DNA of 32,000 nucleotides from Candidatus Electrothrix sp. GW3-4 (lineage in GTDB: Bacteria > Desulfobacterota > Desulfobulbia > Desulfobulbales > Desulfobulbaceae): NCBI RefSeq assembly GCF_037902255.1, contig NZ_CP147990.1, positions 3,270,001-3,302,000 of the forward strand, written 5' to 3'. This document shows, one piece after another, positions 1,122 through 17,385 of the stretch. Below the pieces are notes generated by a model that searched no databases, was not told the DNA's origin, and worked only from the letters and a program-made list of their open reading frames with translations. Position 1 is the first letter of the stretch; every line of letters starts with the position of its first letter. The position numbers and the translations under genes were made by a program.

Positions 1122-1173
1122 ATCTCCTCTTCTCTCATCCCGCAAAAGACACGCTATTTTTTCACGCCCCAGC

Positions 1174-1360: not shown

Positions 1361-1454
1361 GACCCGAATGAACTGACGCCGAGGCAGGCGCAGGATCTAC
1401 GCTATGAGCTGGCAGGTCTTTTAGAACAAGAAGAATAAAAAGGCGGGAGTAGAA

Positions 1455-1490
1455 GAATGAAGCGAATACTCTCATGCATCCGCTTCATTC
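1455..1490 (-). terminator. Possible terminator hairpin after the small-protein gene 1512..1886
   Basis: A perfect 10-bp inverted repeat (gaatgaagcg / cgcttcattc) with a 16-nt loop sits about 20 nt past the stop codon. The T-run is not immediately adjacent, so support is weak. Confidence 0.3.
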
Positions 1491-1511
1491 AATGCTGGAA
1501 GAGCATATCTC

Positions 1512-1886
1512 CTATTGAAACTCAGTTGGGGCAAAGACGTGAACCAGCCCATCAAGATTGGTCGGATCTGAAAGTGACTGCATGAGCTCAGGCATAATAG
1601 CACCCTGCATCACAGGGATCATGATAGCCTGCATAGGAAGTTGCTCCCCTACCGGGGCTGTGGTGTCAACAGTAGATTGGGTTGCCATCACACTTGTTCT
1701 CACGTTATTCCTCATAGTAACGACGTCCGGGCTACCAACAACGGTACTCACAGGATCCGCAATCAGGGGATCCGTTGCAGATATAGGCGGTTGAATGAAC
1801 GCTGCTGCTGCCTGATTAACAAAGGCCGTATACGAGAGCACCATCAGTAATAATCCACAATATATCATTTTTTTCATCTGTAACAT
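1512..1886 (-). CDS. Small secreted Met-rich protein, subfamily 2 (S/TDPxI N-terminus, DG...APxxF tail)
   Basis: An A-tract plus GGAGG Shine-Dalgarno precedes the ATG. The signal peptide is MLQMKKMIYCGLLLMVLSYTAFVNQAAA. The mature region carries PPISATDPLIADPVSTVV, then a Met-rich core (MQAIMIPVMQGAIMPELMQ), then the tail SDPTNLDGLVHVFAPTEFQ. It is paralogous to 13240..13614, 16277..16672 and 17035..17385. Confidence 0.8.
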   Translation of the reverse strand: MLQMKKMIYCGLLLMVLSYTAFVNQAAAAFIQPPISATDPLIADPVSTVVGSPDVVTMRNNVRTSVMATQSTVDTTAPVGEQLPMQAIMIPVMQGAIMPELMQSLSDPTNLDGLVHVFAPTEFQ

Positions 1887-1940
1887 TTTTTCCTCCTTTT
1901 TTTTATTGATTAATAAGACCCTACATATTTCAGCGCAGTA

Positions 1941-2348
1941 TCATTGAAACAACTCTGCATCTGAGGGTGCAATACGTACCGCCATTCCATCCGGGTTATT
2001 GGGGTCAGAAAAACTCATCTTCTGAACAACTTCAGCATTAAGAAGTGTCATCATCGTTCCCCCGACCGTCCATCTCGCAAAGCTTTTTATATCTTCCCGT
2101 AATGGATTAGCTGTACTAAAGATATTAGCCGATGTATCTGCCAGGACCTCCGCCCTCTTGGCAATTTTAATATCCTTCACCTCTTGCCTTGCCTTCAAGT
2201 CTTCAATTTGCGTTGGTGTTAAAATATCATGAATTGAAGTCGGCAGAACAAGCTCTGCTGCCCTTACTTTACTGGCAATTCCCAACACTCCCAAAAACGC
2301 AAGCATAAGCCCCGCCTGCCGAAGAAGTACCTTTTTCTTGCGTATCAT
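1941..2348 (-). CDS. Small secreted protein, subfamily 1 (LPxSIHD + LTxxQ-like motif, with DG...IAP tail)
   Basis: I moved the start to the internal Met (MIRKKK), which is preceded by AAAAAAGGTGG. A signal peptide is followed by AELVLPTSIHDILTPTQIEDLK. The C-terminus is SDPNNPDGMAVRIAPSDAELFQ. Confidence 0.8.
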   Translation of the reverse strand: MIRKKKVLLRQAGLMLAFLGVLGIASKVRAAELVLPTSIHDILTPTQIEDLKARQEVKDIKIAKRAEVLADTSANIFSTANPLREDIKSFARWTVGGTMMTLLNAEVVQKMSFSDPNNPDGMAVRIAPSDAELFQ

Positions 2349-2447
2349 CACGCCACCTTTTTTATAATTATTCCTCACTGTCAAAGACTCTCTAACCTTG
2401 TCCTCACCCAAAATAGAGCGAGGTCCAGAGGCATCCTTGCTAACACG

Positions 2448-2801
2448 TTAGGATCCAGCACCAGCATCAGACAACTCACGCATCTTCTCTTTTGGTTGCG
2501 TCTGTTTCCTGACAGCTTCTTGTACGGCATTAACTATAGAGCGGCGGTTCATCGTCCCCATCATAGCCGAAGACCTGACAACAGCCTGATCACTCATTGC
2601 CTGCTTTCTCATCTCACGCTGAATCTCCCGAACAGCAAGATTCTCTCTAATCTCAGCAAGCTGATCCGATGTCAAGATTTCATGAATAGAGGTTGGAAGA
2701 TTTAACCTCGTTGCTTTAGCATGATCGACAAGCCCCATACAAAAAAAGAATACGGCCACGAACAGCCCAGCTCTCAGTCCTCCTTTCTTTCTCCTTAACA
2801 T
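2448..2801 (-). CDS. Small secreted protein, subfamily 1, tail-less variant
   Basis: I moved the start to MLRRKK, which is preceded by AAGGAGGGGGA. A signal peptide is followed by TRLNLPTSIHEILTSDQLAEIR. The protein ends ...ELSDAGAGS and lacks the DG..IAPxxF tail. It lies 26 nt downstream of collagen-like gene A. Confidence 0.75.
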   Translation of the reverse strand: MLRRKKGGLRAGLFVAVFFFCMGLVDHAKATRLNLPTSIHEILTSDQLAEIRENLAVREIQREMRKQAMSDQAVVRSSAMMGTMNRRSIVNAVQEAVRKQTQPKEKMRELSDAGAGS

Positions 2802-2827
2802 TCCCCCTCCTTTTTCATAAGCTACAA

Positions 2828-4438
2828 TTATCCTCCGCAATTATACGGCTCACATATTATTTTTCCTGCCGGATTAATCCCCTTCATGAACTCTCCTTCT
2901 GGACAAATCTGGCCTTGTTGGGTCTTTGGTAATGATAAAGGCTCGGGAGAAACACCTGATGATGTACCTCCTGCATCTTCCGGCTCTTTGTTCGGGTTCT
3001 GTGAGATATTAACATTACCTGGAGCCCCCTGGTCTCCGGGGTCGCCTTTATCGCCCTTGTCTCCCTTTTCACCCTGAGGACCTTGGACGCCAGGATCACC
3101 TTTGTCACCCTTGTCCCCTTTTTCTCCCTGCGGGCCTTGCTGTCCCATAGGACCTCGTGGACCAATGGGTCCCTGTAGTCCTCGAACCCCCTGAAGACCT
3201 TGGACGCCAGGATCACCTTTATCACCCTTGTCCCCCTTCTCTCCTTGAGGACCTTGAGCTCCGGTATCACCTTTATCGCCCTTGTCTCCCTTTTCACCCT
3301 GAGGGCCTTGGACGCCAGGGTCTCCCTTATCACCCTTGTCGCCTTTTTCACCCTGAGGACCTTGGACGCCAGGATCACCTTTATCGCCCTTGTCGCCTTT
3401 TTCACCCTGAGGACCTTGGACGCCAGGATCACCTTTATCGCCCTTGTCGCCTTTTTCACCCTGAGGACCTTGGACGCCAGGATCACCTTTAGCGCCCTTG
3501 TCGCCTTTTTCACCCTGAGGACCTTGGACGCCAGGATCACCTTTATCGCCCTTGTCGCCTTTTTCACCCTGAGGACCTTGGACGCCAGGATCACCTTTAT
3601 CGCCCTTGTCGCCTTTTTCACCCTGAGGACCTTGGACGCCAGGATCACCTTTATCGCCCTTGTCGCCTTTTTCACCCTGAGGACCTTGGACGCCAGGATC
3701 ACCTTTATCGCCCTTGTCGCCTTGAGGGCCTTGCGCTCCGGTATCACCTTTACTCGCCATTAAATCCCAACATCCCAGCGGAGTTGAGTCTTCAGCAGGA
3801 GAAGAACCCGCGATTGACTGGCAGCAGGTGTTTATATAAGAGCTTCCGTCGTATTGAACCATATTGCCAGAAAGATATACCTTGCTGGAACTCCATTGCC
3901 CTTTCCAGGAAAAATCCGTTTTCTCACATCCCCCCCCAGAGCTCGTCCCCAATCCATCCGAACAAACCTCAGCATAGGCAACAATATATACGGTATCCCC
4001 TAACAACGATGAAACATTGATCTCATATCTATCTTCATCAGCATCCACTAACTCTTCATGACTCTTGCCATATTGGCCAGGTGCTGCGTTAGAGATCTTC
4101 TTCTCCCCAACGTAGAGAGCGGTTTGACTCATCACCGTTCCAGCAAAGGTAAAAAAGGAGACCGTAACGAGTTCATCAAGATAGGTAATATGGAGCTTAC
4201 CTACCTGGCGCCCCTTACTGGTATCGTTTTTTGCTGCTCCTGCATAGATTGGTGTCTCGACTTCTTCACCATCTTTAATGGTAATCTGCCATCCCCATCG
4301 TTCTGTCTCGAGGAAGTCGTCGAGCTCCTCAGGACCAAAGGCGAATGCAGCCTCACAGCTTTCTTTTTGTCCAGATTGGACCGTGACCGGTACCAACAAA
4401 AGTAATGAAAAGAGTAATGCAGCAATCCTAATTTTCAT
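2828..4438 (-). CDS. Secreted collagen-like (Gly-X-Y triple-helix repeat) protein A
   Basis: I moved the start to [22 protein letters not shown], a signal peptide. The N-terminal region is about 210 aa and contains Cys (WGWQ..PIYAGA..LYVG..APGQYG). It ends in a CBM5/12-like pattern, W-x5-Y-x2-G-x2-V-x-Y-x-G-x2-Y. About 81 uninterrupted Gly-X-Y triplets follow, with the unit [19 protein letters not shown] 62-aa tail contains [20 protein letters not shown]. Confidence 0.9.
3017..3748 (-). repeat. Coding tandem repeat with 54-bp period (18 aa, 6 Gly-X-Y); about 10 near-identical units at 3196-3748 plus diverged units at 3017-3195
   Basis: The unit gaccttggacgccaggatcacctttatcgcccttgtcgcctttttcaccctgag recurs in register at 3196, 3250, 3304, 3358, 3412, 3466, 3520, 3574, 3628 and 3682. 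Several copies are identical or differ by 1-2 nt. Confidence 0.95.
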
Positions 4439-5112
4439 TTTTGTGTCCCCTTTTCCTTTTCCCCATTCCATACCCTTTATTTACCCTTTTTCACCATTAG
4501 GTTTTTAAGGTACAGCCAAATTAAAAAAAAGTACAGATAGAATCTATAAAAAAATACAGAAGAAAAAAATATTAAGGACTTACAGCGCGACTCTTCTTTC
4601 TGACAGATAAAAAAAGTGAACAATAACCAGGCAAAAGCTGGTTGCATAAAAAATGGCTGGCTGCGAAAGACTGCTGATGAAAGCAGATATTTTTTTGGTA
4701 ATTACACTATAATACAAACCCTACATTGTAGTATTTACCGAGAAACTGTTGCATTTTTGAAACAACTCCCCCAACTGACCGCCAGGTCTTGACAAAACCA
4801 ATAGCTTAAGATTAACTTACGCACTGTTAAGAATTTCAGCATTCCCGACCCAAAAAAAACGTCGTCGCCCTGTTCAGGCAGCGTAACTGTGCAGATTATT
4901 GAGAATATGGCCGAGCACGGCATCTCGAAGGAGTTGTTGCTAAGGGCATAAAAAAAACGTTTCGCATACACGTCCGCTCTTTTTCTGAGACGGTTAAAGG
5001 CCCCTTTGGCGATATCCTTTTATTCCAGCGCTTGCGGCCCCGTCAGGGAAACAAATCCTCTACTCAGTAACCACCCATTATCCTTAAAAAAGAATCAATC
5101 AGGTAATGATAT

Positions 5113-5829
5113 ATGAAAAAAGGACTATTGATTACATTGTTATGTCTCACAGCAACTTCTGTCTGGGCAAAAGGCGGATGGATTACGGACCCAACAACAA
5201 AATGTCAGGTTTGGGATCCCGACCCTACTCCTAACCAGTCATTGACCTGGAACGGAGAGTGCAAAAATGGAAAAGCAAACGGCGAGGGCATTGCCAAGTG
5301 GCATGAGGGGAATAAAGTAGTCACGAGTATACAAGGAGTCATGAAAGATGGGCGTTGTCAGGGAGAATGCGTTGCGCTTGCCATCTTTGGAAAAAGTACG
5401 TTCAAATATGTTGGTCAGTTAGGAGATAATGACTTACATGGCAAAGGGACCCTTACCTGGCCGGACGGCAACGAGTACTCAGGGGACTGGGTTGAAGGGA
5501 AACGACACGGTACAGGTAAATTTGTCTGGAAAAATGGGACAGAATATATTGGTGACTGGAGAAATGACAAGACTAACGGTAAAGGGACATATACCTGGGT
5601 TGACCGTGACGAAAAAAAATATATTGGTGACGTGAAAGACGATAAGTTTCACGGAAACGGGGTGATGTTTTATGCAAACGGTAATAAATATTCAGGAAGC
5701 TGGGCCAACGGAAAACGGGACGGTAAAGGAACCTATACCTTTAAGGACGGAACTGTCTATAAGGGGATATGGGAAAACGGGAAGAGGATACAGCTTTTTC
5801 CCCGACTACGAGACTTCCTCTTCTGGTAG
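5113..5829 (+). CDS. Secreted MORN-repeat protein A
   Basis: The signal peptide is MKKGLLITLLCLTATSVWA. A Cys-containing N-terminal segment is followed by tandem MORN units (YxGxWxxGKxHGxGxxxWxxG). It is paralogous to 15047..15769. Confidence 0.85.
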   Translation: MKKGLLITLLCLTATSVWAKGGWITDPTTKCQVWDPDPTPNQSLTWNGECKNGKANGEGIAKWHEGNKVVTSIQGVMKDGRCQGECVALAIFGKSTFKYVGQLGDNDLHGKGTLTWPDGNEYSGDWVEGKRHGTGKFVWKNGTEYIGDWRNDKTNGKGTYTWVDRDEKKYIGDVKDDKFHGNGVMFYANGNKYSGSWANGKRDGKGTYTFKDGTVYKGIWENGKRIQLFPRLRDFLFW

Positions 5830-5938
5830 AAAGGCGCTTGAAAAATAACTCCTCCCTCAAAAGAAGAACTGCCCGCCGGGATAAAATGAGCCTTTCTTCC
5901 CGGCGTTAAAACACTGCTCTATCTTCGTGCTGTTGCTC

Positions 5939-6868
5939 TCACTTCCCCTCTTCCCTCTCCTTCTTCTCAGGAGCTATCTGGACGGGGTAGAGGATATCTA
6001 AAACCCTTCTGATTCCCTCAAGCAAGCCCAAAGTTGGTCGCGACACCAGCTTCTCATCAACCAGAAAAACCTGATTTTCCTGTACCGCTTTAATAACCTG
6101 AAACCCAGGCTCATTACGAATTATCTCCGCAGTGACCTTGTTCATCCGCCCTTCCTGAGCCAGAAAAACATCAATCATTTTTGCCTTAGCCAGGATACGC
6201 TCCTTCCCGTACTCCGCAATATTACTCTTGCGTACCTGAACAGCGTCCGCAGCCACGTTAATCCCCCCTGCGGATTCCAGAACAAACATCGCCATAGACT
6301 CCGGGGCAAAGGTCTTCATCCGCTTATGGATGGATTCAAAATAGACCTTTTTCCTCTTTGCAGCAGGAATGCGTTCCACCTGTCGGTTGATCTCCACAAG
6401 CCCGGTCCCGAAGCGGGCAATCATCTGTGAAGCCTCATCCTGGTGCCCGCTCAGGACACCGAGGTTCTCCCAGTATCGGAACATTTCATCCACAGAGGTG
6501 GGTTGCAACGAAACCACTGTCACACCATTCTCCTCTAGACGTTCCACCATTTGCGGATAAGAACGGCTGAGCATGGGACGGATCAGAACAAGATCCGGCT
6601 TCAGGGCCAACAGACGTTCCGGGTCATCCCGAAAACTGAGCGTAGGCAGATCAGGCAGTTGCTTATCACTGCGCCCTACTGCCACAATTTGCTCCCCTGC
6701 CCCCATGTCGATCAGGTTACGGGTATGGGCAGCATACAGAGAAATGATCCGTTGACAGGACTTATTCAGCTGGACCACCTTGCCGTCATTATCAATGATC
6801 GGCTCTCCAAAGGCAGGGACAGCCAGCAGGCAAGAAAACAGGAGAGCAATAAGAATATGTTTCAGCAT
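5939..6868 (-). CDS. ABC transporter periplasmic substrate-binding protein (BtuF/FecB-like, corrinoid/iron-complex type)
   Basis: A signal peptide is present. The motifs RIISLYAAHTRNLIDMGAGEQIVAVG and KPDLVLI are typical of class III binding proteins. It is the last gene of the riboswitch-headed operon. Confidence 0.8.
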   Translation of the reverse strand: MLKHILIALLFSCLLAVPAFGEPIIDNDGKVVQLNKSCQRIISLYAAHTRNLIDMGAGEQIVAVGRSDKQLPDLPTLSFRDDPERLLALKPDLVLIRPMLSRSYPQMVERLEENGVTVVSLQPTSVDEMFRYWENLGVLSGHQDEASQMIARFGTGLVEINRQVERIPAAKRKKVYFESIHKRMKTFAPESMAMFVLESAGGINVAADAVQVRKSNIAEYGKERILAKAKMIDVFLAQEGRMNKVTAEIIRNEPGFQVIKAVQENQVFLVDEKLVSRPTLGLLEGIRRVLDILYPVQIAPEKKEREEGK

Positions 6869-7050
6869 TTTTTCCTCTTGGTTTTATGGGCAAGGTTGTA
6901 TACCCGAGGTCTGGCCTCAGGCTGATATATTCCGCCTTTTCAGGGCGGCCTCCGTAACAAAGAACCCTGAAAGGGTTCAACATGACCAGCTCAGGGAAAC
7001 ACCCTGAGTATAAAATGGAAATTATAGCGTTTCGGGTTTCGACTCCTCAA

Positions 7051-7854
7051 TCATGCAGCTGGCAGCCTGTAACTTACCTGATAGCAAGCGGAAAAGCTTT
7101 CCTTCCGCACCTGCGCTTCCACGCCATAGACCTCCTCTATGACCTCAGGACGCAGTACCTCCTCAGTCGGCCCTTGGCAGATAATCCGCCCGTTTTTCAA
7201 AAAAATTAATTCATCACAGAAATATGCTGCCAGATTGAGGTCATGAATTGCAGCAACCACGGTCAGGCCCTGCTCCACAACCCGATGACGAATCAGGGCC
7301 AGGATGGACAGGGAATGATAAATATCCAGATTCGAGGTGGCCTCATCAAGGAGCAGCACCTCCGGGTCCTGGACCAGGGCCCGAGCCACAGCGACCCGCT
7401 GCTTTTCCCCACCAGACAGCCGGGTTACCGAACGAGCCGCAAATCCGGCCACGCCCATTTCCTCCATCACCGCATCAACCAAGGCATGCCCCTGTTCAGT
7501 CAGGGAGGAGAATCGACCGAGATGGGGATGACGCCCCATCTCCACCACTTCCCGCACAGAGAAACCAAAGCGAACCTGGAAATCCTGGGGCACCAAAGCA
7601 ACCCGTTTGGCCAGTTCCCGCGCCTGCCATTGTTTGAGCAGGGTTTCGCGATAGCTGATTTCCCCTTTCTCTGCGACAGCCAGACCACAGAGCAGATCAA
7701 GCAGAGTGGTCTTGCCGCTGCCGTTCGGCCCGAGGATACCGTAACATTTCCCGGCAGACAGGGTAAGATCTATTCCGGCTAAGACGGGCTGATCCTTGTA
7801 GGAGAACGCGACCTGCTCCAACTGCCAGAGGATATCAGAAGCAATTCTATCCAC
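7051..7854 (-). CDS. ABC transporter ATP-binding protein (BtuD/FecE/HmuV-like)
   Basis: It has Walker A GPNGSGKTTLL, the ABC signature LSGGEKQRV and Walker B LLLDEATSNLD. Its start overlaps the stop of the permease gene. Confidence 0.9.
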   Translation of the reverse strand: MDRIASDILWQLEQVAFSYKDQPVLAGIDLTLSAGKCYGILGPNGSGKTTLLDLLCGLAVAEKGEISYRETLLKQWQARELAKRVALVPQDFQVRFGFSVREVVEMGRHPHLGRFSSLTEQGHALVDAVMEEMGVAGFAARSVTRLSGGEKQRVAVARALVQDPEVLLLDEATSNLDIYHSLSILALIRHRVVEQGLTVVAAIHDLNLAAYFCDELIFLKNGRIICQGPTEEVLRPEVIEEVYGVEAQVRKESFSACYQVSYRLPAA

Positions 7855-8903
7855 TAGCCATTTTCCTGCTGTCGTTTTTTAAAGATATAAGCAAAGAACG
7901 GTCCACCGATAAGGGCGGTCAAAACCCCGATGGGAACCTCTGCCGGGAGCACAGCCCTGGTAACGGTATCGGCCAGGAGCAGAAGCAGCCCCCCACCCAA
8001 TGTGGAGAGAATGATCAGCTGGCGATTATCCGGGCCGATAAGATGGCGAAGGAGATGAGGGACAATCAAACCAACAAAACCGATAATTCCCGAGACCGAG
8101 ACACAGAGCGCCGTCATCAGGGAACAGGTGACAAGAAGAATCCAGCGCAGACGCACCGTATTCACGCCAAGGGTAGCGGCTGCCCTTTCTCCAGTGGCCA
8201 TGATATTCAAATCGCGGCTGTAGAACAGGCAAACCGCCATGCCGATCAGGGCCACAGGCAAGAGAAGGAGGATATTCTGGCGGGAAATTCCGGAAAGGGA
8301 GCCCATGAGCCAGAAAATAATAATACCGACTTGCTCGTCAGCAATAAATTTCAGAAACCCGATGGCTGCGGACAGGATAGCCGCCACAATCACTCCAGAC
8401 AGGATCAGACTGGTTGAAGAAAGCCGTCGGTCTTCAGAGGCAAGGGCCAAGACCGTAAACAGGGTCCCGATACTGCCCAAAAAGGCAAAGATCGGCACAG
8501 AAAGCGTTGACGGCAGAGCCAGCCCAACCACCTGGAGGACAATGACCAGGGAGGCTCCAAAGGCCGCACCTGAGGAAATCCCCAGAGTGTAGGGGTCTGC
8601 CAGCGGATTAAGGAGAATAGCCTGAAACACCGTGCCGCAGAGGGCCAGCATCCCCCCGACCAGCACTGCCGCCAAGATGCGGGGCAGACGCACATCCATA
8701 ACCACTGCCGTAACCACCGGATCAAATCCGGCATCCTTGCCGCTGAAAGAAAAAGCATGTCCGATGAGCTGCAAAACAGTTGCTGCGGGGATCTGCATAA
8801 ACCCCATAGTGGCTGACACAACCACAGCAACAAGCAGGAGGAGACACATGCCTCCCCCTGCTGCCCAAGAGAATCCTGACCGTGCAACCATTGATATCCG
8901 CAT
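7854..8903 (-). CDS. ABC transporter permease, FecCD/BtuC family
   Basis: The protein is polytopic and hydrophobic with FecCD-type motifs (DPYTLGISSGAAFGA, GIIGFVGLIVPHLLR). It is tightly packed between cbiK and the ATPase gene. Confidence 0.85.
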   Translation of the reverse strand: MRISMVARSGFSWAAGGGMCLLLLVAVVVSATMGFMQIPAATVLQLIGHAFSFSGKDAGFDPVVTAVVMDVRLPRILAAVLVGGMLALCGTVFQAILLNPLADPYTLGISSGAAFGASLVIVLQVVGLALPSTLSVPIFAFLGSIGTLFTVLALASEDRRLSSTSLILSGVIVAAILSAAIGFLKFIADEQVGIIIFWLMGSLSGISRQNILLLLPVALIGMAVCLFYSRDLNIMATGERAAATLGVNTVRLRWILLVTCSLMTALCVSVSGIIGFVGLIVPHLLRHLIGPDNRQLIILSTLGGGLLLLLADTVTRAVLPAEVPIGVLTALIGGPFFAYIFKKRQQENG

Positions 8904-8905
8904 CT

Positions 8906-9898: not shown

Positions 9899-9949
9899 GG
9901 GAATCTCCCTATCTTGTGCTGATCCGGGAGTTTTGATAGCATCAGCCAT

Positions 9950-9986
9950 AAAAAAACCCGGACCAATTAAAAAATTGATCCGGGAT
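9950..9986 (-). terminator. Intrinsic terminator forming the expression platform of the cobalamin riboswitch
   Basis: Read on the minus strand, the sequence is CCCGGATCAATTttttAATTGGTCCGGG followed by TTTTTTT. It lies between the aptamer and the cbiK start. Confidence 0.75.
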
Positions 9987-10019
9987 ATCCCTTCTGTACC
10001 CAGATAACGTCCATGCGGT

Positions 10020-10196
10020 TCAGGCCTTTGCCGAGGTTACTGAACATCTTTTTCAGGCAGGTTTTCTGACTTCCGGCTCTTTCTCCCCTGCGCCTTCCCG
10101 CCTGTTACAGACAGTGACATTATGCAGGTTCGTCCCCGGTTACAGCGGCGGGCCCGTCCCGGATTCACACCGGGTTCCCTTTTCATCCGACCATAT
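10020..10196 (-). promoter_or_regulatory. Cobalamin (B12) riboswitch aptamer
   Basis: Read on the minus strand, the core is AAAAGGGAACCCGGTGTGAATCCGGGACGGGCCCGCCGCTGTAACCGGGGACGAA. A B12-box-like GCCGGAAGTCAGAAAACCTGCC lies at 10056-10077. It sits upstream of the cbiK/ABC transporter operon. Confidence 0.85.
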
Positions 10197-10345
10197 AGTT
10201 ATATGTAACGGACACCTGAAAACAGACAATACTGTAGTCAAGGTAAGCAACGAAGTCAAGGAGGGAATGGTCATCACACCGCCCGATAAGGTCAGAAAAG
10301 GTATTTCCATCCTATCCCTCCGCACCTTATGATTTTTTTATATTC

Positions 10346-10708
10346 TCATTGATCCAGTTGAATGCAGCTGTGAGGCAATGCAGTGCTAATAATAATGGGC
10401 GTTGACTCAACTCTGGCCAGCTGCTTATATTTTTCCTCCTTGTCTTTGAAGCAGGATGACATTACAGGCGCCAATAATTGCCCTACAATGACATCAATAA
10501 GTTCACTTTGCTTCTCTGATCCACACTTCACTCCGAGTGCCTGCAGATCCTGTTGCATTCCCTCTCCCGTATCGGACCTCACAAGACGTCCTGTTTCCTC
10601 ATAGACACATTTTTCTTCTGATGCAGTTATATTCCCGGCCTGGGCATTAACAGTGATTAATAAAGTACAAAAAAACAAGAATATTGTGGGCTTTAAAAAA
10701 AAATGCAT
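10346..10708 (-). CDS. Small secreted Cys-containing hypothetical protein
   Basis: GAGGAG precedes the ATG. The signal peptide is MHFFLKPTIFLFFCTLLITVNAQA. The mature part contains four Cys. I recognise no family. Confidence 0.6.
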   Translation of the reverse strand: MHFFLKPTIFLFFCTLLITVNAQAGNITASEEKCVYEETGRLVRSDTGEGMQQDLQALGVKCGSEKQSELIDVIVGQLLAPVMSSCFKDKEEKYKQLARVESTPIIISTALPHSCIQLDQ

Positions 10709-10737
10709 TTTGCTCTCCTCAGCTGATTTGTTTTTTT

Positions 10738-10828
10738 ATAAACTCCCATCCCGACCCAGCGGACCGGGACAACAAAACATGAAAGGAGGAAAGCCTGGTC
10801 GGCTTCGCCAACCATTTTTACATAAATT
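10738..10828 (-). repeat. Structured intergenic repeat, copy E1 (5' of gene 10346..10708)
   Basis: Read on the minus strand: TTATGTAAAAA-[TGGTTGGCgaaGCCGACCA]-..CCTTTCATGTTTTGTTGTCCCGGTCCGCTGGGTCGGGATGGGAG. It shares its flanks and its second hairpin with copies at 15838, 16729 and 21708. Confidence 0.7.
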
Positions 10829-11046
10829 ACACCTTCAACATACTTATTTATCGAAGACTTCTCTCCTTATCGCCATTTTCCAACGCCTTTGAGCACCGCG
10901 TTTCACGTCCCTCTTGAACTTAGCGCCCTTCGGGCGGGTTTTTGATCCCTCAACATACTCACGACTTGAAACAGAGAATACCTAAGAAAACAAAAACATG
11001 AATAATATCAAGATGGGAAAATGAACATTCCTATACTATCAAGTTA

Positions 11047-11430
11047 TCAGAAAGGGCCAGGTGCTATCTTGACCGGCATTCCATCCGGGGATGCCGGATC
11101 AGCCAAGGCCTGCATCTGCACAGCCATGTGTTCGTTTCGAGTCTGGCTACTTATCGCAGCGCCTATCTTCAATCCAACCTCCTGGTTTACAAGCCCTATC
11201 AAGGGCCTATTTTGGGCTTGTTCGGTCATGACATCCCCCCGTATGCCATTCTTTATATCACTGAGCTCCTGGCTATTCTTTATTTGATCAACTTGCTCCG
11301 CACTCAGGAGGTCGTGAATTGAACCAGGAAGACTTATATCAATGGCCTTGGCGTTATCTGCTGAGCCTATGCAGGTAGCCAGTGTAATCAGTAGCGCTGC
11401 CCTTATAAGGATTACTTTTTTTACTTTCAT
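11047..11430 (-). CDS. Small secreted protein, subfamily 1 (with DG..IAP tail)
   Basis: AAAAAGGGAGG precedes the ATG. A signal peptide is followed by IDISLPGSIHDLLSAEQVDQIK. The C-terminus is ADPASPDGMPVKIAPGPF. It lies 68 nt downstream of collagen-like gene B. Confidence 0.8.
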   Translation of the reverse strand: MKVKKVILIRAALLITLATCIGSADNAKAIDISLPGSIHDLLSAEQVDQIKNSQELSDIKNGIRGDVMTEQAQNRPLIGLVNQEVGLKIGAAISSQTRNEHMAVQMQALADPASPDGMPVKIAPGPF

Positions 11431-11498
11431 CGTCTTTTCCTCCCTTTTTAATGAAACATTTCAAGCTGCCTTTTTAGCCCTTTCTCCAGAGCTCCCTT

Positions 11499-12917
11499 TC
11501 AACTCTGATCGGGCGCCGCTGTCACGGGTTCACATATAAGCCTGCCAGCAGAGTCTATCCCCCTGACCCACTCTCCTTCAGGGCATAGTTGTCCCTTTGG
11601 AAGAGGGAGGGGACTCAAGCCGCCCCCTGAAGCTGGATCCAGCTCTTGTGGATTGACCTTATCTTTTCCAATGGTATCAAACCGTTCTCCTTTTGCCCCT
11701 TGGGCTCCGGGATCGCCTTTTTCACCTTGAGGCCCCTGGATGCCAGGCTCCCCCTTATCACCCTTGTCCCCTTTTTCTCCTTGAGGGCCTATAGGTCCCC
11801 TGGGGCCAACAGGGCCTATGCGGCCTATAGGTCCTATTTTTCCTTGTATCCCCTGATCACCCTTTTCTCCTTTCGGCCCCTGAGCTCCGGCATCACCTTT
11901 ATCACCCTTGTCCCCTTTTTCTCCTTGAGGACCCTGGGCTCCGCCATCACCTTTATCACCCTTGTCCCCTTTTTCTCCTTGAGGACCCTGGGCTCCGGCA
12001 TCACCTTTATCACCCTTGTCCCCTTTTTCTCCTTGAGGACCCTGGGCTCCGGCATCACCTTTATCACCCTTATCCCCTTTTTCTCCTTGAGGACCCTGGA
12101 CGCCAGCATCACCTTTATCACCCTTGTCCCCTTTTTCTCCTTGAGGACCCTGGACGCCAGCATCACCTTTATCACCCTTGTCCCCTTTTTCTCCTTGAAG
12201 ACCCTGGACGCCAGCATCACCTTTACTCACCATGAGATCCCAGCATCCCTGAGGACCAAGATCATCTTGAGGAGGAACTCCCTGCATTGATTCGCAACAG
12301 GTATTTATATATGCGCTGCCATCATGTTGTACCATATTTCCAGCGAGATAAACCTCACCAGGACCCCATACCCCTCCCCAGGAGAAATCGATTTCTTCGC
12401 ATTCGTTTCCTGATTTAACTCCCGGTTCTTCTTTTACGCATACCTCTGCATAAGCAACAAGATACAAAGTCCCACCTGCATAAGAGGAGACATCAAATTC
12501 GTAGTTATCCTCATCAGTATTGAACAGGTCCTTATGGCTATTGCCGTACTGACCAGGTGCAGCAGTTGAAACATATCGGTCCCCCACATAGAGATGCGTT
12601 GCACTGAGAACATAATCGTTAAACAGGGCATAGGAGACCGTCAGCGTATTGTTCTGGTAGGAAACATGAAGGTCACCAACATGGGTAGCCTTATCAAGGC
12701 TGTTCCCCCCGGCACCTGCATAGATCGGCGTGTCATAATTATCGTTTTCTTTAAGGGTAAGCTGCCATCCCCATTTCTTTGTATCAAGAATCGAACTGAG
12801 TTCATCAGCGCCATAAGCGTAGGCACCTTCGCAGGATCCTGCCTCTCGGGAGTGGGCATTTACCGACGACAATAGCAAAAAAGCTAATAGCAGCAATCGG
12901 ATATTATTCTTTTTCAT
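11499..12917 (-). CDS. Secreted collagen-like (Gly-X-Y) protein B, paralog of 2828..4438
   Basis: I moved the start to MKKNNIRLLLLAFLLLSSVNAHS, which is preceded by GGGAGG. The architecture matches protein A, and the Cys positions and the WGWQ/PIYAGAG/LYVG/APGQYG motifs are conserved. The same CBM5/12-like pattern is present. About 60 Gly-X-Y triplets follow, with the unit [16 protein letters not shown](V/A)Q. The tail contains CPEGEWVRGIDSAGRLICEP. Confidence 0.9.
   Translation of the reverse strand: MKKNNIRLLLLAFLLLSSVNAHSREAGSCEGAYAYGADELSSILDTKKWGWQLTLKENDNYDTPIYAGAGGNSLDKATHVGDLHVSYQNNTLTVSYALFNDYVLSATHLYVGDRYVSTAAPGQYGNSHKDLFNTDEDNYEFDVSSYAGGTLYLVAYAEVCVKEEPGVKSGNECEEIDFSWGGVWGPGEVYLAGNMVQHDGSAYINTCCESMQGVPPQDDLGPQGCWDLMVSKGDAGVQGLQGEKGDKGDKGDAGVQGPQGEKGDKGDKGDAGVQGPQGEKGDKGDKGDAGAQGPQGEKGDKGDKGDAGAQGPQGEKGDKGDKGDGGAQGPQGEKGDKGDKGDAGAQGPKGEKGDQGIQGKIGPIGRIGPVGPRGPIGPQGEKGDKGDKGEPGIQGPQGEKGDPGAQGAKGERFDTIGKDKVNPQELDPASGGGLSPLPLPKGQLCPEGEWVRGIDSAGRLICEPVTAAPDQS
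11682..12221 (-). repeat. Coding 54-bp tandem repeat of collagen-like gene B (near-identical units at 11876-12221)
   Basis: The unit gaccctgggctccggcatcacctttatcacccttgtcccctttttctccttgag recurs in register at 11876, 11930, 11984, 12038, 12092 and 12146. Confidence 0.95.
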
Positions 12918-13239
12918 GATAATCCTCCCTGGTAATGGCGAAAGTAGCAACCCGGCTGTCTCTCGCATTGAGACCCGTGGCTTTCCGGCACCACCTCGCG
13001 GCGGTTGTGGTTTTATGTAATCTTTCTGAGTCGAACTCCTCCAATCGGCTCTGACCAGGAAAGACTGACTGTTTTTTAGAAACAGATGTTACAAATACTC
13101 TTTACAAATATTCAGCTATAATGACTCATTATATCATTGGCTATCCTCAAGGCGGGGCAAGAGGAATCACCGCATCCCTTCCGCAATGACTCCTCTCCGT
13201 ATAAATGTCGGTTTTAAACACGCCTTGGTGAAACCTGCC

Positions 13240-13614
13240 TTATTGTGTAAAAACCGGTGGGGCAAGCAAGGCAACCATGCCATCCGGATTATTCCGGTCA
13301 GAAAGCGTAGCCATCATCTGATCCTGAACCTGGGACTTGATCTGATCCTGCATGATCGTCGTCATCATGGGTTCCAGCACAGGTCGCATGGGTTTTGCGG
13401 CGCTCTGGGTATCAATAACCTGATCTCTCATACTATTCTTCATATCAACGACCTGGCCATTGCCCACTACTTGACTCACTGCATCCTGAATCAACGGGTC
13501 ACTTGAGGACACAGGAATACCGATATCTATCGCCAGCACCTGATTCGCCGGAATTGCAATAAGGGAAAACAACAGGACAATTTTAACAGCCGTTATTTTT
13601 TTGATACGTAACAT
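13240..13614 (-). CDS. Small secreted Met-rich protein, subfamily 2
   Basis: I moved the start to MLRIKK, which is preceded by AAGGAGG. A signal peptide is followed by IDIGIPVSSSDPLIQDAVSQVV. The Met-rich core is PMRPVLEPMMTTIMQDQIKSQVQDQMMATL, and the tail is SDRNNPDGMVALLAPPVFTQ. Confidence 0.8.
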   Translation of the reverse strand: MLRIKKITAVKIVLLFSLIAIPANQVLAIDIGIPVSSSDPLIQDAVSQVVGNGQVVDMKNSMRDQVIDTQSAAKPMRPVLEPMMTTIMQDQIKSQVQDQMMATLSDRNNPDGMVALLAPPVFTQ

Positions 13615-13736
13615 GGTGAATCCTCCTTTTTTCATTGTAAGCAGTAATTGCTCACTTCTTTCTTGCGGTCTCCTACCGCCTTCAAACATTGGTACTTTCT
13701 CTTATTTCAAACAGAGACTCGCCATCTTGTCCGGCA

Positions 13737-14093
13737 TCACTCCTGGTTGTCCGGATCAGATGCCGCACCCATTTGCGCCGTTCCATTGCCAATCTGAAAA
13801 CGTCCACTGACTTCTTTATCAACCACACCTCCAAGGACACCGCTCATAACCATCTTTGCGGCTGGCTTTTTGGCGACCTGCTCAGTTATCACCTGCCCCC
13901 TCATGCCGTTCCGTATCGCCAGGAGAGCAGGATCGGCCTTGACCGTTTCAATCTGCTCGGAGGTCAATACATCATGAATGGAAGATGGGAGAGTAATCTC
14001 CAATGCCCAGGCCTTACCTGTCAAACCTATGCATACAGACAATGCGCTCAACAACGCTGTCTTCGCAAATATATTCTTTTTTACCTGCAACAT
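13737..14093 (-). CDS. Small secreted protein, subfamily 1, tail-less variant
   Basis: AAAAAAAGGAGG precedes the ATG. A signal peptide is followed by LEITLPSSIHDVLTSEQIETVK. The protein ends ...AASDPDNQE and lacks the DG..IAPxxF tail. Confidence 0.75.
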   Translation of the reverse strand: MLQVKKNIFAKTALLSALSVCIGLTGKAWALEITLPSSIHDVLTSEQIETVKADPALLAIRNGMRGQVITEQVAKKPAAKMVMSGVLGGVVDKEVSGRFQIGNGTAQMGAASDPDNQE

Positions 14094-14213
14094 ATTATCC
14101 TCCTTTTTTTAGGTGACATCTCAAGCCCCTTTTACGTTACTCTCGTTACAAAATATCGCCTCACCTCTTCAGAATAAGAACCATTCCTTAATAATAACTT
14201 TATTATTATTAAA

Positions 14214-14228
14214 TGTCACATTGTGACA
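14214..14228. promoter_or_regulatory. Perfect 15-bp palindrome TGTCACA-T-TGTGACA, a candidate operator
   Basis: The palindrome is exact and lies about 120 nt upstream of the first gene (13737..14093) of the locus-B gene string, inside an AT-rich region. An extra TGTCA half-site follows 3 nt downstream. Confidence 0.35.
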
Positions 14229-15046
14229 CCTGTCAAGGGCTTTCAATATTTTTCAACCCTTAAACAAAAAAATAGTTATCACGCATCTATTCGAAACAAC
14301 TAATATAAAAAGAAGCAATAAAAACAGGTTCATTCAAGGTAAAGTTTATTATATAATAAATAATCATATAAAAATTCCTCACTATACCCGGTCACGATTA
14401 TGCGACGAACAAAACTAATGGCAGCGCAGTGCCCATTGTCATGACGGATAAAAATGCCGCTGACCAGCGCACCGGCAAAAAAACATTTAGAAAAAACGCT
14501 TACGTTCAGGGGAGTGAGATTATCCCGAAGCCGAGGCGTAGGCCCTGCCTGTCGATTCAGGAAAACAGCGCATGCAGTGGTATATTATTCAGAAGCATCT
14601 GAAAGAGGCCAAACCATGCTAACCTTGTGAGTTAATCGTGTGGATGGATACTGGAAGCAGCTGGTATTGGGAGAGTATGGGCAGGACAGCATAAGCAACT
14701 TATGCTGTTAACCGTACGTTTCTGCACAAGCTTATCAAACTTTTATTTCTTTTGGATTCTGTGCATTATTTCGGATACTATAATTTAAAAGTCGACCTGA
14801 CAGCCAAGCAGTACAGTTACTGCTACATCTGGCTTCTGTTTAAAACAGGAAGGGAAAAATCATTTTATAGCGCAGTCAAATTTATTCCTCCTCTTATCTA
14901 GAGGAGAATAACGGTATCTGTATGAGAAAAGAGTTGCTGGAAGAACCCAGCCAAAAAACTTTTGCTCTCCAGATAGGGCAAGATTGCAACTCTGTTGTTC
15001 CGCTATCCAAAAACCGTATCGATAATACTTAGCGAGGAGAGACGCC

Positions 15047-15769
15047 ATGCGAATAATACTTGTAATATTAACACTTTTATCCCTTCCAGCACCGTCCACC
15101 TATGCACAAGGAGAGTGGGTTATTGACCAAGAGACTCAATGTCAGGTGTGGGATTCTGACCCAAAGCGGAACCAGTCTATAACGTGGTCTGGGAAATGCC
15201 AAAACGGCAAAGCTCATGGTGAGGGCGTTGCGAGCTGGCACGAGGGAAACAAAGTGGTTGCCAGCATAAAAGGAAACATGAAAGAAGGTCGTTGCCAAAG
15301 TGAAGATTGCCTTGTGACAATTGCAGCAGGAAACAAAGAAGTAAAATATATCGGCCAACTCAAGGATAACGACCTACATGGTAAGGGAACATTAACCTGG
15401 CCCGATGGTAACGAATATTCAGGTGACTGGCTTAAGGGAAAGAGACATGGCAAGGGCAAGTTTACCTGGAAGAACGGTACGGAATACAATGGCGATTGGC
15501 AAGATGATAAAAGTACCGGTAAAGGGACATTTATTTGGGTTGACCGTGATGAAAAAAAATATATTGGTGAAGTGAAGGACGGTAATTTTCACGGAAATGG
15601 CGTCATGTTATACACAAACGGCGATAAATATTCAGGAAGCTGGGCTGACGGCAAGCGACACGGCAAGGGAAACTACACCTTCAAAGATGGTACTACCTAC
15701 AAAGGAATATGGGAGAACGACAAGAGGATACAGCTGTTTCCTCGGTTAAGAGATTTTCTGTTTTTGTGA
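15047..15769 (+). CDS. Secreted MORN-repeat protein B, paralog of 5113..5829
   Basis: GAGGAGAG precedes the ATG. The signal peptide is MRIILVILTLLSLPAPSTYA. The repeat layout matches protein A, and the C-terminal tail RIQLFPRLRDFLF is identical. Confidence 0.85.
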   Translation: MRIILVILTLLSLPAPSTYAQGEWVIDQETQCQVWDSDPKRNQSITWSGKCQNGKAHGEGVASWHEGNKVVASIKGNMKEGRCQSEDCLVTIAAGNKEVKYIGQLKDNDLHGKGTLTWPDGNEYSGDWLKGKRHGKGKFTWKNGTEYNGDWQDDKSTGKGTFIWVDRDEKKYIGEVKDGNFHGNGVMLYTNGDKYSGSWADGKRHGKGNYTFKDGTTYKGIWENDKRIQLFPRLRDFLFL

Positions 15770-15837
15770 GTCGGATTCAACAACTACCAGAGCAGGATAG
15801 CAAGGTATTACGGGGCCAAAAGCGCGGCTAACGCGAC

Positions 15838-15923
15838 GGTCCCGTTCCAGCGGACTGGGACAACCAAAGATGAAAGGTGGTCGAGCGATTTACATCGCCT
15901 CACCCGGCACGTTCATATAACGG
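15838..15923 (-). repeat. Structured intergenic repeat, copy E3 (orphan; no gene follows it)
   Basis: Read on the minus strand: TTATATGAACG-[hairpin GAGGCGATgtaaATCGCTC]-CACCTTTCATCTTTGGTTGTCCCAGTCCGCTGGAACGGGAC. This is followed at 15815-15837 by CGCGttagcCGCG plus CTTTTGG. Confidence 0.6.
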
Positions 15924-16201
15924 AGTCAAACCTTGAGCCATCAAGACTTTTGGCTCTTTAAAATGCAATGGAAAGATCTCGTCCGAATCCAGCCGAAATA
16001 TATTTTAAGGGGCTCCTTGAGACTGACCAAGTCTCCAATCCTCCCGGATCTGTATTTTTTTTCAGGATACACCCTACTCGTTTCCGGGAATAACTGCGCT
16101 ATGTAAGGAAGCTGCGAATGGGTGAAAAGAGGAGGGGGAGCATAGAAGCTACAGAAGAATAAGGCCACACCCGTGGAAGTGCGCTTTTAGTCTTCCTGAA
16201 T

Positions 16202-16256
16202 AAAAAAAGGGGGACATCGACAAAGCCCTTAACGGTCAGCGAGATTCCCCTTTTTT
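16202..16256 (-). terminator. Probable intrinsic terminator after gene 16277..16672
   Basis: Read on the minus strand: GGGGAATCTCG...CGATGTCCCCC followed by TTTTTTT. An A-run on the other side gives it a bidirectional look. The loop is large and the stem imperfect. Confidence 0.45.
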
Positions 16257-16276
16257 ATTCTTGTTTTTGCGCTGTA

Positions 16277-16672
16277 TCAATCAAATGTCGGTGCTATCAT
16301 ATTAGGTATTCCTTCTGGACTCGCAGCATCCTGCATTGCGGCCATTTGCGTTTTTCTCGTCTTATCTCGCGTCTCCTGCCGTACCCTTGTGCTGACCACT
16401 TCACTAATTGCGTCTCCCATAGGACGAAGCAAAGGAAGTCGCTTGGCCTGCTCTTCTTTTATCCTATCCCTTGTTTGACGCATTATCGCCTTCACATCAA
16501 TACCATTCATATCAACATCAGTCTTAACGCTGTCCACAACCCCCTGAATTTCCGGATCATCAGATGGTAGAGGAATATTGATATTCTGCGCCTGTGCAGC
16601 ATTAACACCTGCAACAGCAGCCAAGGAAATAGCCAAGGCTAGATTCATTGATATTTTTTTTAAGTGCAGCAT
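16277..16672 (-). CDS. Small secreted protein, subfamily 2 (diverged, charged core)
   Basis: I moved the start to MLHLKK, which is preceded by AAAAAAAAAGGAG. A signal peptide is followed by NINIPLPSDDPEIQGVVDSVK. The tail is DAASPEGIPNMIAPTFD. The upstream part of the listed ORF (16673-16807) is covered by repeat E4. Confidence 0.75.
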   Translation of the reverse strand: MLHLKKISMNLALAISLAAVAGVNAAQAQNINIPLPSDDPEIQGVVDSVKTDVDMNGIDVKAIMRQTRDRIKEEQAKRLPLLRPMGDAISEVVSTRVRQETRDKTRKTQMAAMQDAASPEGIPNMIAPTFD

Positions 16673-16728
16673 AGTCTCATCTCCTTTTTTTTTCGATAGT
16701 ACTAACCAACTCGCTTTTTCTTGATAAC

Positions 16729-16814
16729 ACTCATCCCTTCCCTTGGGGAGGGACAACAAAGCATGAAAGGTGCTCAGACGATCCCAAGGAGTCGTCGGTA
16801 CTTTCATATAAAAT
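16729..16814 (-). repeat. Structured intergenic repeat, copy E4 (5' of gene 16277..16672)
   Basis: Read on the minus strand: TTATATGAAAG-TACC[GACGActccttgggaTCGTC]TGAGCA-CCTTTCATGCTTTGTTGTCCCTCCCCAAGGGAAGGGATGAG. Confidence 0.7.
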
Positions 16815-16920
16815 TATCCGCTTTAAAAATTCTTCTGGAGTTACTACTCATCGACAGAAACAAGGCCAATGAATAAAAGATATTTTTATAAAATGACTGA
16901 TCAGAAGTATCTCTTTTTTC

Positions 16921-16964
16921 TCAAAAACATTTACACGGGAGACCAACAGGACCTCCCGTGTAAA
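16921..16964 (-). terminator. Intrinsic terminator after gene 17035..17385
   Basis: A perfect 12-bp stem (TTTACACGGGAG / CTCCCGTGTAAA, arms at 16930-16941 and 16953-16964) is followed on the minus strand by TGTTTTTGA. Confidence 0.75.
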
Positions 16965-17034
16965 CTTTCGCAACAGATTAAATAAAGAAAAAAGTGCAAG
17001 CTTCACACCTTTTTCTTACAGGATCCCCTACAGC

Positions 17035-17385
17035 CTAGAAAGGAGGAGGAGCGATAGATCCCGGAATACCACCATTGGGGTTTTTCAGAGCGCCCATTTG
17101 GGTATTCATGATTTTATTCTTCATCATCGGCTGCATCTTTGCCATAACCTGATCGATCAGCGGCATATTAGCAGACATGTCAGTGATGACATTAGCTCGG
17201 GTGGCATTCATCATGTCTTTTACCATCGCGTCAGTCCTGACAGTAGATACTACCTGCTGAATCTCCGAATCACCGGTGGGAATGGGGATTTCCACAGCCT
17301 GAACATTGCTCACTGTGTACGCAGAAGCAGCCAAAGTAAGCATCAGCGCGACTTTCACTGTTCCTGATTTCATTTTTTGCAGCAT
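17035..17385 (-). CDS. Small secreted Met-rich protein, subfamily 2
   Basis: AAGGAGGAAG precedes the ATG. A signal peptide is followed by VEIPIPTGDSEIQQVVSTVR. The core is very Met-rich (MVKDMMNATRANVITDMSANMPLIDQVMAKMQPMMKNKIMNTQM). The tail is NPNGGIPGSIAPPPF. Confidence 0.8.
   Translation of the reverse strand: MLQKMKSGTVKVALMLTLAASAYTVSNVQAVEIPIPTGDSEIQQVVSTVRTDAMVKDMMNATRANVITDMSANMPLIDQVMAKMQPMMKNKIMNTQMGALKNPNGGIPGSIAPPPF

Follow-up and report, generated by a model that had tools for sequence, protein, structure and literature searches.

Among the bacterial collagen-like surface proteins, Scl1 and Scl2 of Streptococcus, Lcl of Legionella and BclA of B. anthracis join a signal peptide and a globular non-collagen domain to a long, charged run of Gly-X-Y (GXY) triplets, and BclA filaments are attached via small dedicated partner proteins. 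Curli-type operons encode a fibre subunit together with several small secreted accessory proteins, and riboswitches of the GEMM-I class usually control surface, matrix and adhesion genes and, in Geobacter, genes of extracellular electron transfer. Here we describe a module of a marine cable bacterium in which two collagen-like genes, colA and colB, whose products share the architecture of Scl, Lcl and BclA, are accompanied by genes for a trio of small secreted-type proteins and for a secreted-type MORN-repeat protein, colB lying behind a GEMM-I aptamer. The module is found in a stretch of 32,000 nucleotides (nt) of contig NZ_CP147990.1 (positions 3,270,001 to 3,302,000; hereafter the window, with positions counted from its first letter), in the closed 4.64 Mb genome of Candidatus (Ca.) Electrothrix antwerpensis GW3-4, a filamentous member of the Desulfobulbaceae. 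An initial annotation made from the letters alone had guessed at a filamentous host of the Desulfobulbales type, which agrees with this origin. Strain GW3-4 has been described under the name Ca. Electrothrix antwerpensis and clonal cultures exist (PMC11247825), making proteomics and imaging feasible.

For the envelope and sheath structures that cable bacteria build, the proteins are unidentified (PMC12093952, PMC11976967): some strains carry extracellular sheaths of "undefined nanofibers" (PMC12093952), and recent work describes the composition of the sheath as undefined (PMC12093952) and the molecular structure of the conductive fibres as unresolved. The literature that we surveyed names no structural protein for the conductive periplasmic fibres, ridge compartments, cartwheel junctions or sheaths of these organisms. 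We found no published description of the module genes in the cable-bacterium literature that we searched, and a full-text literature search returned no paper naming both Electrothrix and riboswitches.

The collagen-like gene and its partners form a conserved unit

The window holds two collagen-like genes, two MORN genes and eight genes for paralogous small proteins, the latter falling into subfamilies S1 (tailed, S1t, or tail-less, S1n), S2 and S3. Starts were refined by Shine-Dalgarno sequences, after which all twelve genes of the initial annotation, and both of the gene orders that it had read, were recovered exactly as claimed. They are given below in the order of transcription within each locus, followed by the divergent MORN gene; lengths are in amino acids (aa), and dN/dS is the ratio of nonsynonymous to synonymous substitution rates.

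Locus A
2828-4438 (-), colA, collagen-like protein of 536 aa with 82 uninterrupted GXY triplets; Pfam Collagen 146.7 bits
2448-2801 (-), S1n_A, tail-less S1 protein of 117 aa from MLRRKK, beginning 26 nt past the colA stop codon
1941-2348 (-), S1t_A, S1 protein of 135 aa from MIRKKK, with an LPTSIHD motif and a C-terminal tail
1512-1886 (-), S2_A, S2 protein of 124 aa with the C-terminal tail ...SDPTNLDGLVHVFAPTEFQ; last gene of the locus
5113-5829 (+), MORN_A, secreted-type MORN-repeat protein of 238 aa, divergent from colA; Pfam 117.1 bits; dN/dS 0.14

Locus B
13737-14093 (-), S1n_B, tail-less S1 protein of 118 aa; first gene of the locus
13240-13614 (-), S2_B, S2 protein of 124 aa from MLRIKK, upstream of the riboswitch
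12943-13021 (-), GEMM-I (c-di-GMP-I) aptamer in the colB leader; RF01051 52.8 bits with the model matched in full length (gathering score 35)
11499-12917 (-), colB, collagen-like protein of 472 aa with the architecture of colA and 60 uninterrupted GXY triplets; Pfam Collagen 102.2 bits
11047-11430 (-), S1t_B, tailed S1 protein of 127 aa, directly downstream of colB
15047-15769 (+), MORN_B, secreted-type MORN-repeat protein of 240 aa, divergent from locus B; Pfam 113.2 bits

S3 pair
17035-17385 (-), S3a, 116 aa, 13% methionine in its mature part; paired with S3b
16277-16672 (-), S3b, 131 aa from MLHLKK; the most widely recovered member of the small-protein family

The N-termini of all twelve proteins combine a basic n-region, a hydrophobic core (10 aa with a mean Kyte-Doolittle hydropathy of 2.1-3.3) and small residues at -3/-1; by this crude check they are signal-peptide-like, as the initial annotation had proposed, and export of all twelve products is predicted. 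When compared with orthologues, every module gene has a dN/dS of 0.09-0.21, against 0.03 for glgP, which indicates real genes under purifying selection that evolve fairly fast; S2_A (0.18-0.20) matches WGN25_14525 of Ca. Electrothrix sp. GW3-4 with 100% identity. Co-expression is indicated by the short distances between the genes, about 26-70 nt, and by strong Shine-Dalgarno sequences. The translation signals described at the outset were also found: 5-9 nt ahead of its ATG, each of the eight small genes has GGAGG, GGTGG or GGAG, preceded by an A-tract.

Related loci (labelled L001 onwards) were gathered by context look-ups and pattern scans and all classified by a single script. The collagen gene and its small partners recur in five further Electrothrix lineages, namely Ca. 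E. laxa (L014), the Electrothrix metagenome-assembled genome MFD10219 (L007 = L013, partial, as the contig stops inside the collagen gene) and three metagenomic lineages (L008/L009/L010, L011/L012 and L017/L018), in one fixed order: a divergent MORN gene, then collagen, tail-less S1, tailed S1 and S2. The tail-less S1 gene directly follows the collagen gene in every other lineage, the shuffled order being confined to locus B, and a divergent MORN gene upstream of the collagen gene is likewise present in L007/L013, L008 and L014. On contigs long enough to tell, every S1 or S2 gene had a collagen gene next to it. The collagen gene with a tail-less S1, a tailed S1 and an S2 gene and a divergent MORN gene is a conserved unit, and the earlier proposal of a functional unit, tested here by co-localisation in other genomes, is borne out. 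The proposed tie between small proteins and collagen holds for S1 and S2; the S3a-S3b pair is self-contained and occurs in genomes that have no collagen gene at the locus.

Collagen-like and MORN-repeat proteins

The products of colA and colB are 55% identical, and both have a long uninterrupted GXY region that scores well above the cut-off of Pfam Collagen (PF01391, 27.2 bits). The colA protein consists of a signal peptide, an N-terminal domain (N-domain, residues ~25-160), a Cys-rich segment resembling CBM5/12 (~172-228), the GXY region (231-476), a Pro/Ser-rich linker and a C-terminal Cys loop. Within the repeats of both proteins, the X position often holds D, E or P and the Y position K or Q, a charged composition as in bacterial collagens without hydroxyproline. 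The C-terminal loop, QxCPEGxxxxGIxxAGxxxC, is kept in all collagen orthologues.

The N-domain (~28-160) was modelled as a beta-sandwich with moderate confidence (predicted local distance difference test, pLDDT, of 65-86 in the core), the remainder of the model being poor; the domain falls into no Pfam family, and a structural search of the PDB gave no significant neighbour. The segment at ~172-228 matches CBM_5_12 (PF02839) at 21.0 bits in colA and 16.2 bits in colB, below the cut-off of 26.2, and the related protein P0004 has a precomputed PF02839 match; the segment is probably glycan-binding. Together with the collagen region, it aligns to the tail-fibre family phrog_5073 (337 bits, from residue 174 on, and 176 bits), and many other tail-fibre PHROGs match as well. 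Since the N-domain has relatives under riboswitch control (see below) and the CBM and collagen part is phage-fibre-like, the collagen gene looks like a fusion of the two: a native, riboswitch-controlled N-domain joined to a CBM-plus-collagen segment of the phage tail-fibre kind. With its 60-82 GXY triplets, the collagen region should trimerise into a rigid rod of roughly 50-70 nm.

MORN_A and MORN_B are 72% identical and carry five repeats each, above the PF02493 cut-off of 22.5 bits.

A family of small proteins found in Electrothrix

The eight small proteins align along their whole length as a single family, and a hidden Markov model built from them recovers all eight at E-values of 1e-40 to 1e-50. 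Paralogues are just 21-41% identical (S2_A and S2_B 41%), which makes the duplication old. S1 proteins carry the motif LP(T/S/G)SIH(D/E). Across the family, a strand-like I-x-[IL]-P is conserved just past the predicted cleavage site, as is a tail of the form [ND]-P-[DE]-G-x4-[IF]-A-P-x-x-F, the latter missing from the tail-less S1 proteins. In an AlphaFold2 model of low confidence (pLDDT 59.6, predicted template modelling score, pTM, 0.24), too poor for a fold search, the protein folds into two long helices and its ends are unstructured.

The small proteins match no characterised family, nothing having been obtained in Pfam, NCBIfam or PHROGs. An exhaustive HMMER search over 1.84 billion representatives returned 46 proteins at E <= 0.001, and another search returned 34 matches; the named members are all from Electrothrix, and no match could be assigned to the freshwater genus Electronema. 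Nearly all of the 46 are small (89-237 aa), the full-length ones starting in a signal-peptide-like manner, and two are long (1880 and 2990 aa). One of the small proteins, P0046 (237 aa, from a JGI metagenome contig), is S3b-like and contains a long, extremely methionine-rich insert, e.g., AAMMMNRNTMAPSASMMMNTNTG.

Every Electrothrix genome sampled has the S3a-S3b pair, whether or not a collagen gene is there too: E. aestuarii, E. aarhusensis and E. yaqonensis YB6 carry it with no collagen gene in the flanking 10 kb, and in the early-branching YB6 it sits among unrelated neighbours. The pair has its own promoter-like site (TTTACA-17-TATxxT) and terminator. Between S3a and S3b, two strong terminator-like hairpins with stems of 15-16 bp lie at 16929-17017 (-); a terminator scan found none at the equivalent position in L001 or L016. 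Such hairpins could set a higher S3a:S3b expression ratio.

A GEMM-I aptamer ahead of colB and other N-domain genes

The aptamer of locus B scores above the RF01051 gathering score and lies in the 5' leader of colB, ending 25 nt ahead of the colB ATG at 12917 with the Shine-Dalgarno sequence GGGAGG in between; no expression platform or ON/OFF polarity was recognised in the leader. At the position that corresponds to G20 of Vc2 the aptamer has an A, where the aptamers of L005 and L015 and the Rfam consensus have G, and it retains A47 and C92 as read by eye, the mapping of Rfam columns to Vc2 being our own. In characterised GEMM-I RNAs, a single G20A change marks riboswitches that sense cyclic GMP-AMP (cGAMP) or are bispecific (PMC6140456). 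The colB aptamer fits this GEMM-Ib sequence signature and would be cGAMP-sensing or bispecific.

A custom covariance model built from three aptamers matched only upstream of genes with the collagen N-domain. The genes found behind an aptamer are colB, those of L004, L005 and L006 (E. aarhusensis-type) and those of L015, L021 and, in part, L019 (Electronema-type), and every non-collagen relative of the N-domain with upstream sequence available, in Electrothrix and Electronema, has an aptamer ahead of it. These relatives take several forms. The variable slot of the E. aarhusensis-type locus contains a 184-aa protein that consists of the N-domain only, behind a GEMM-I aptamer; its gene is intact in L004 (14935-15489, -), split into two open reading frame (ORF) fragments about 1 kb apart in L005 (14844-16489, -) and truncated in L006 (16512-16946, -). 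The Electronema-type genes of L015 (9334-10447, +) and L021 (526-1668, +), and in part that of L019, encode two tandem N-domains with no collagen region, again with a GEMM-I aptamer ahead, which in L015 belongs to the Rfam variant c-di-GMP-I-GGC.

A hidden aptamer upstream of colA was considered and rejected: none was found ahead of colA or its orthologues when positions 1-18200 were searched permissively with Rfam, when Rfam was run on the related loci at the gathering threshold, or with the custom covariance model. Elsewhere in the window, about 10 kb from the S3 pair, a large protein encoded at 27870-30194 (-) combines HEAT repeats with cyclic-nucleotide-binding and PilZ (c-di-GMP receptor) domains.

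Insertion sites and the interposed cobalamin operon

Loci A and B are separated by an operon that is not part of the module:

5939-10234 (-), B12 operon: cobalamin riboswitch at 10039-10234, then genes for a CbiK with a signal peptide, a FecCD permease, an ABC ATPase and a BtuF-like binding protein

Its genes span 5939-9949 and match FecCD, ABC_tran, Peripla_BP_2 and CbiK in Pfam and NCBIfam, with a weak BtuF match, and the RF00174 aptamer (129.1 bits against 31.5) lies upstream of these BtuCDF-type genes, as in a corrinoid uptake operon. An equivalent combination of riboswitch and operon is present in L001, L005 and L014, from three other species; the periplasmic-type CbiK, with its signal peptide, is kept inside it in several Electrothrix species. 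The CbiK and ABC genes are an ordinary corrinoid uptake unit outside the module.

In E. aestuarii and E. aarhusensis, the region reads glgP, S3a, S3b, B12 operon, variable slot and a homologue of orf287, and the collagen, S1, S2 and MORN genes are missing at this locus. GW3-4 has locus B as an insertion that separates S3b from the B12 riboswitch, while locus A fills the variable slot. Distal to locus A, at ~1190-1340 (-), lies a pseudogene fragment of about 150 nt that corresponds to the 3' end of a BtuF-like gene. It is 73-78% identical to the intact gene (5985-6129), and its C-terminal coding part is, by eye, closer to the E. aarhusensis-type gene than to the strain's own copy. We read the fragment as a recombination scar at one end of the locus A block, a sign that this locus came in, or was swapped, as one piece. 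The module, which sits in a variable slot and bears this scar, is accessory, and therefore cannot be a structure that all cable bacteria share, as they do the conductive fibres.

Several further genes of the region were noted. The conserved distal flank, orf287 (54-917), is 95% identical to its counterpart in L001. Between S1t_B and the B12 riboswitch, a 120-aa ORF (10346-10708, -) with a signal-peptide-like N-terminus and four cysteines matches nothing in Pfam, NCBIfam or PHROGs, and none of the fetched loci has a homologue of it. At the window edge, an ORF at 31240-31944 (-) has a COR-B domain, as in Roc-COR GTPases, and L004 has a related LRR-Roc-COR gene near the locus.

A proposed envelope or surface module and alternative readings

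We hold with moderate confidence that the module, which is accessory and built around a collagen-like stalk, serves the envelope or surface of marine cable bacteria (Electrothrix) and that its products are exported by the Sec pathway. With one copy behind a cyclic-dinucleotide riboswitch, the module is probably an optional structure of the cell envelope or surface. The collagen-like protein would trimerise into the rod described above, bearing at its N-terminal end three copies of the beta-sandwich domain plus the CBM5/12-like, probably glycan-binding, segment; at its C-terminal end, the conserved loop with two cysteines could set the register of the trimer or cross-link it. Co-transcribed with the collagen gene would be those of its three dedicated partners (S1n, S1t and S2), small proteins tentatively predicted to be helical hairpins, which may act in stoichiometric assembly, anchoring or capping of the rod. 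Tail-less S1, encoded directly after the collagen gene, would be the rod's closest partner, and the secreted MORN protein a fifth constant component. At least colB-S1t_B would be gated by the GEMM-I cyclic-dinucleotide riboswitch. The partnership of the small proteins with the rod, and a final location in the periplasm or at the cell surface or sheath, are proposals, as is the "fibre or matrix" function suggested in the initial annotation, which the riboswitch on colB makes more plausible.

Several observations weigh against this proposal. As colA and its orthologues lack an aptamer, cyclic-dinucleotide control is not general to the module. The S3a-S3b pair, found without any collagen gene, implies a collagen-independent role of the family that the proposal leaves outside. 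The low-confidence model makes the helical hairpin with strand-like ends a weak picture, and the CBM_5_12 matches of both collagen-like proteins fall short of the Pfam cut-off. Heavily sheathed E. yaqonensis YB6 was not recovered by the pattern scan for the collagen N-domain, which weighs against a simple assignment as a sheath protein; the genome-wide and metagenome scans returned three loci each, and their peptide patterns are narrow, so that little weight can be put on a lack of matches elsewhere. Pfam scans of the long, likely-gene ORFs of the 32 kb found no anchor near the module and no usher, sortase, secretin, secretion ATPase, CsgG-like channel or other export or assembly component. 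The initial annotation had already noted such a lack; its statement that no enzyme is encoded nearby did not stand, as an enzyme and an ABC importer do lie between the loci, in the separate cobalamin operon.

An alternative reading takes the small proteins for general periplasmic helpers, either ATP-independent chaperones like Spy, CpxP and ZraP or methionine-rich metal buffers, with the link to collagen secondary; S3a-S3b, adjoining the CbiK chelatase and importer, would then serve metal or corrinoid handling. We consider this unlikely. The family does resemble Spy, CpxP and ZraP in being small, of Sec-exported type and predicted to form a helical hairpin, S1 has an LTxxQ-like motif, and the best PDB sequence matches of the family profile are three Spy entries, aligned over SIHDIL...VK. 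Their E-values (0.31-0.66) are, however, non-significant, hhalign of the family profile against the Spy sequence of Escherichia coli gives a probability of 2.5%, and Pfam LTXXQ and Metal_resist found no match among 28 family members at E up to 1; the family's conserved N- and C-terminal motifs are also absent from Spy and CpxP. Homology to these chaperones was rejected on this evidence, and the link to the LTXXQ and CpxP-Spy families suggested at the outset is not supported. Of the domains named there, Collagen and MORN scored above threshold, CBM_5_12 below it and LTXXQ not at all. A role in metal buffering would agree with the methionine content of mature S3a, of S2_B (10%) and of the P0046 insert, but the family has no cysteine and almost no histidine. 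The pair adjoins the CbiK operon in E. aestuarii, E. aarhusensis and GW3-4, yet it has a promoter-like site and terminator of its own and lies in an unrelated neighbourhood in E. yaqonensis, and a cobalamin riboswitch heads the CbiK operon both here and in three other species; for these reasons we rejected the idea that the module is linked via CbiK to nickel or cofactor handling that serves the conductive fibres. S1 and S2, moreover, were never seen apart from a collagen gene.

It is quite unlikely, in our view, that the small family, perhaps with the collagen rods, forms parts of the conductive fibres, insulating shell, ridge compartments or cartwheel junctions. The restriction of named members to Electrothrix cable bacteria, the many paralogues with strong translation signals, as for abundant proteins, and the occurrence of S3a-S3b in every Electrothrix genome sampled, early-branching YB6 included, would all suit such a role, and the protein components of the fibres are not identified in the literature (PMC11976967). 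Against it, no match could be assigned to Electronema, which has the same fibres, and the collagen, S1, S2 and MORN genes are missing at the locus in conductive E. aarhusensis and E. aestuarii. The small proteins lack Cys and His and any obvious cofactor-binding motif, and a second-messenger riboswitch fits less well with a constitutive core structure than with an optional trait of the surface.

A bolder reading, which we rate as rather improbable, would make the small proteins subunits of a new self-assembling extracytoplasmic polymer. Helical hairpins would join head to tail via the strand-like N-terminus and the (N/D)P(D/E)G-x4-(I/F)AP-x-x-F tail; S3a-S3b would form a basal lattice in all Electrothrix; and tail-less S1 would be the cap or adaptor that mounts 50-70 nm collagen-like stalks with glycan-binding heads in module-carrying strains. 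The outcome would be a cyclic-dinucleotide-controlled coat, an extracellular sheath nanofibre or a ridge or junction scaffold. If true, this would give the first protein identities for a cable-bacterium-specific envelope structure.

We give next to no credence to the remaining reading, in which the collagen genes are prophage tail-fibre remnants and the small ORFs unrelated cargo or noise: the PHROG matches of the CBM and collagen part, and distant protein matches (P0004-P0006) that look like phage fibre proteins, speak for it, but no other phage gene lies in the 32 kb, where only the collagen and MORN genes match a PHROG, a tblastn search of colB against 50,697 phage records was empty (with a low-complexity filter that masks collagen repeats), the proteins have signal-peptide-like N-termini, which phage tail fibres generally lack, their N-domain is common to chromosomal, riboswitch-controlled cable-bacterium genes, and the genes keep a conserved chromosomal position under purifying selection. 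At most, the CBM-plus-collagen segment may have been recruited long ago from a phage gene.

Comparison with known systems

The accessory envelope or surface module that we favour can be set against several described systems. NCBIfam models of Lcl and Scl align to the repeat region of colA and colB with 108-166 bits, far under the equivalog cut-offs of 325-500 (Lcl 166 against 500; Scl2/SclB 137-154 against 325), so colA and colB are not orthologues of Lcl or Scl. They also differ from Scl and its like in having no LPXTG anchor, no C1q-like C-terminal domain and an N-domain without a Pfam family, and the small-protein trio, the MORN partner and the riboswitch belong to this module and not to the Scl, Lcl or BclA systems. 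The attachment of BclA would be the closest analogy to a collagen-like protein with a set of small partners. For phage tail fibres, the likeness lies in the order of a CBM-like segment followed by collagen repeats; the module proteins differ in their signal peptides, their other N-terminal domain, a chromosomal non-phage context and cellular regulation. The curli resemble the module in concept only, as a small secreted set that would accompany an extracytoplasmic structural protein: the module has no CsgG-like channel, its small proteins are predicted to be helical instead of beta-rich, and there is no sequence similarity. Pfam scans of the long window ORFs identified neither a chaperone-usher or curli system nor a type IV pilus or sortase-assembled pilus.

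The GEMM-I and GEMM-Ib regulons of Vibrio (Vc1-gbpA), C. difficile (adhesin and pilin genes) and Geobacter (cGAMP) likewise have a class-I aptamer ahead of a secreted, surface-type gene. The A at the G20 position of the colB aptamer matches the cGAMP or bispecific subclass of Geobacter, and both hosts are electroactive members of the former Deltaproteobacteria. Here the difference is that the riboswitch is newly linked to the N-domain family, and that just one of the two collagen genes has an aptamer. The GEMM-I aptamers, one of them with the cGAMP-type A20, tie a whole cable-bacterium domain family to cyclic-dinucleotide signalling.

Taken together, the locus yields a short list of candidates, an orphan secreted family with many paralogues, known only from Electrothrix, and a collagen-like stalk protein with fixed partners, and the species with and without the module offer a natural experiment for ultrastructure. 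Two of its elements are of kinds already known, bacterial collagen-like surface proteins and GEMM-I-controlled surface genes. What is new is that they occur in a fixed set together with an orphan family of small proteins and a MORN protein; new too are the uncharacterised N-domain family and its link to the riboswitch in cable bacteria.

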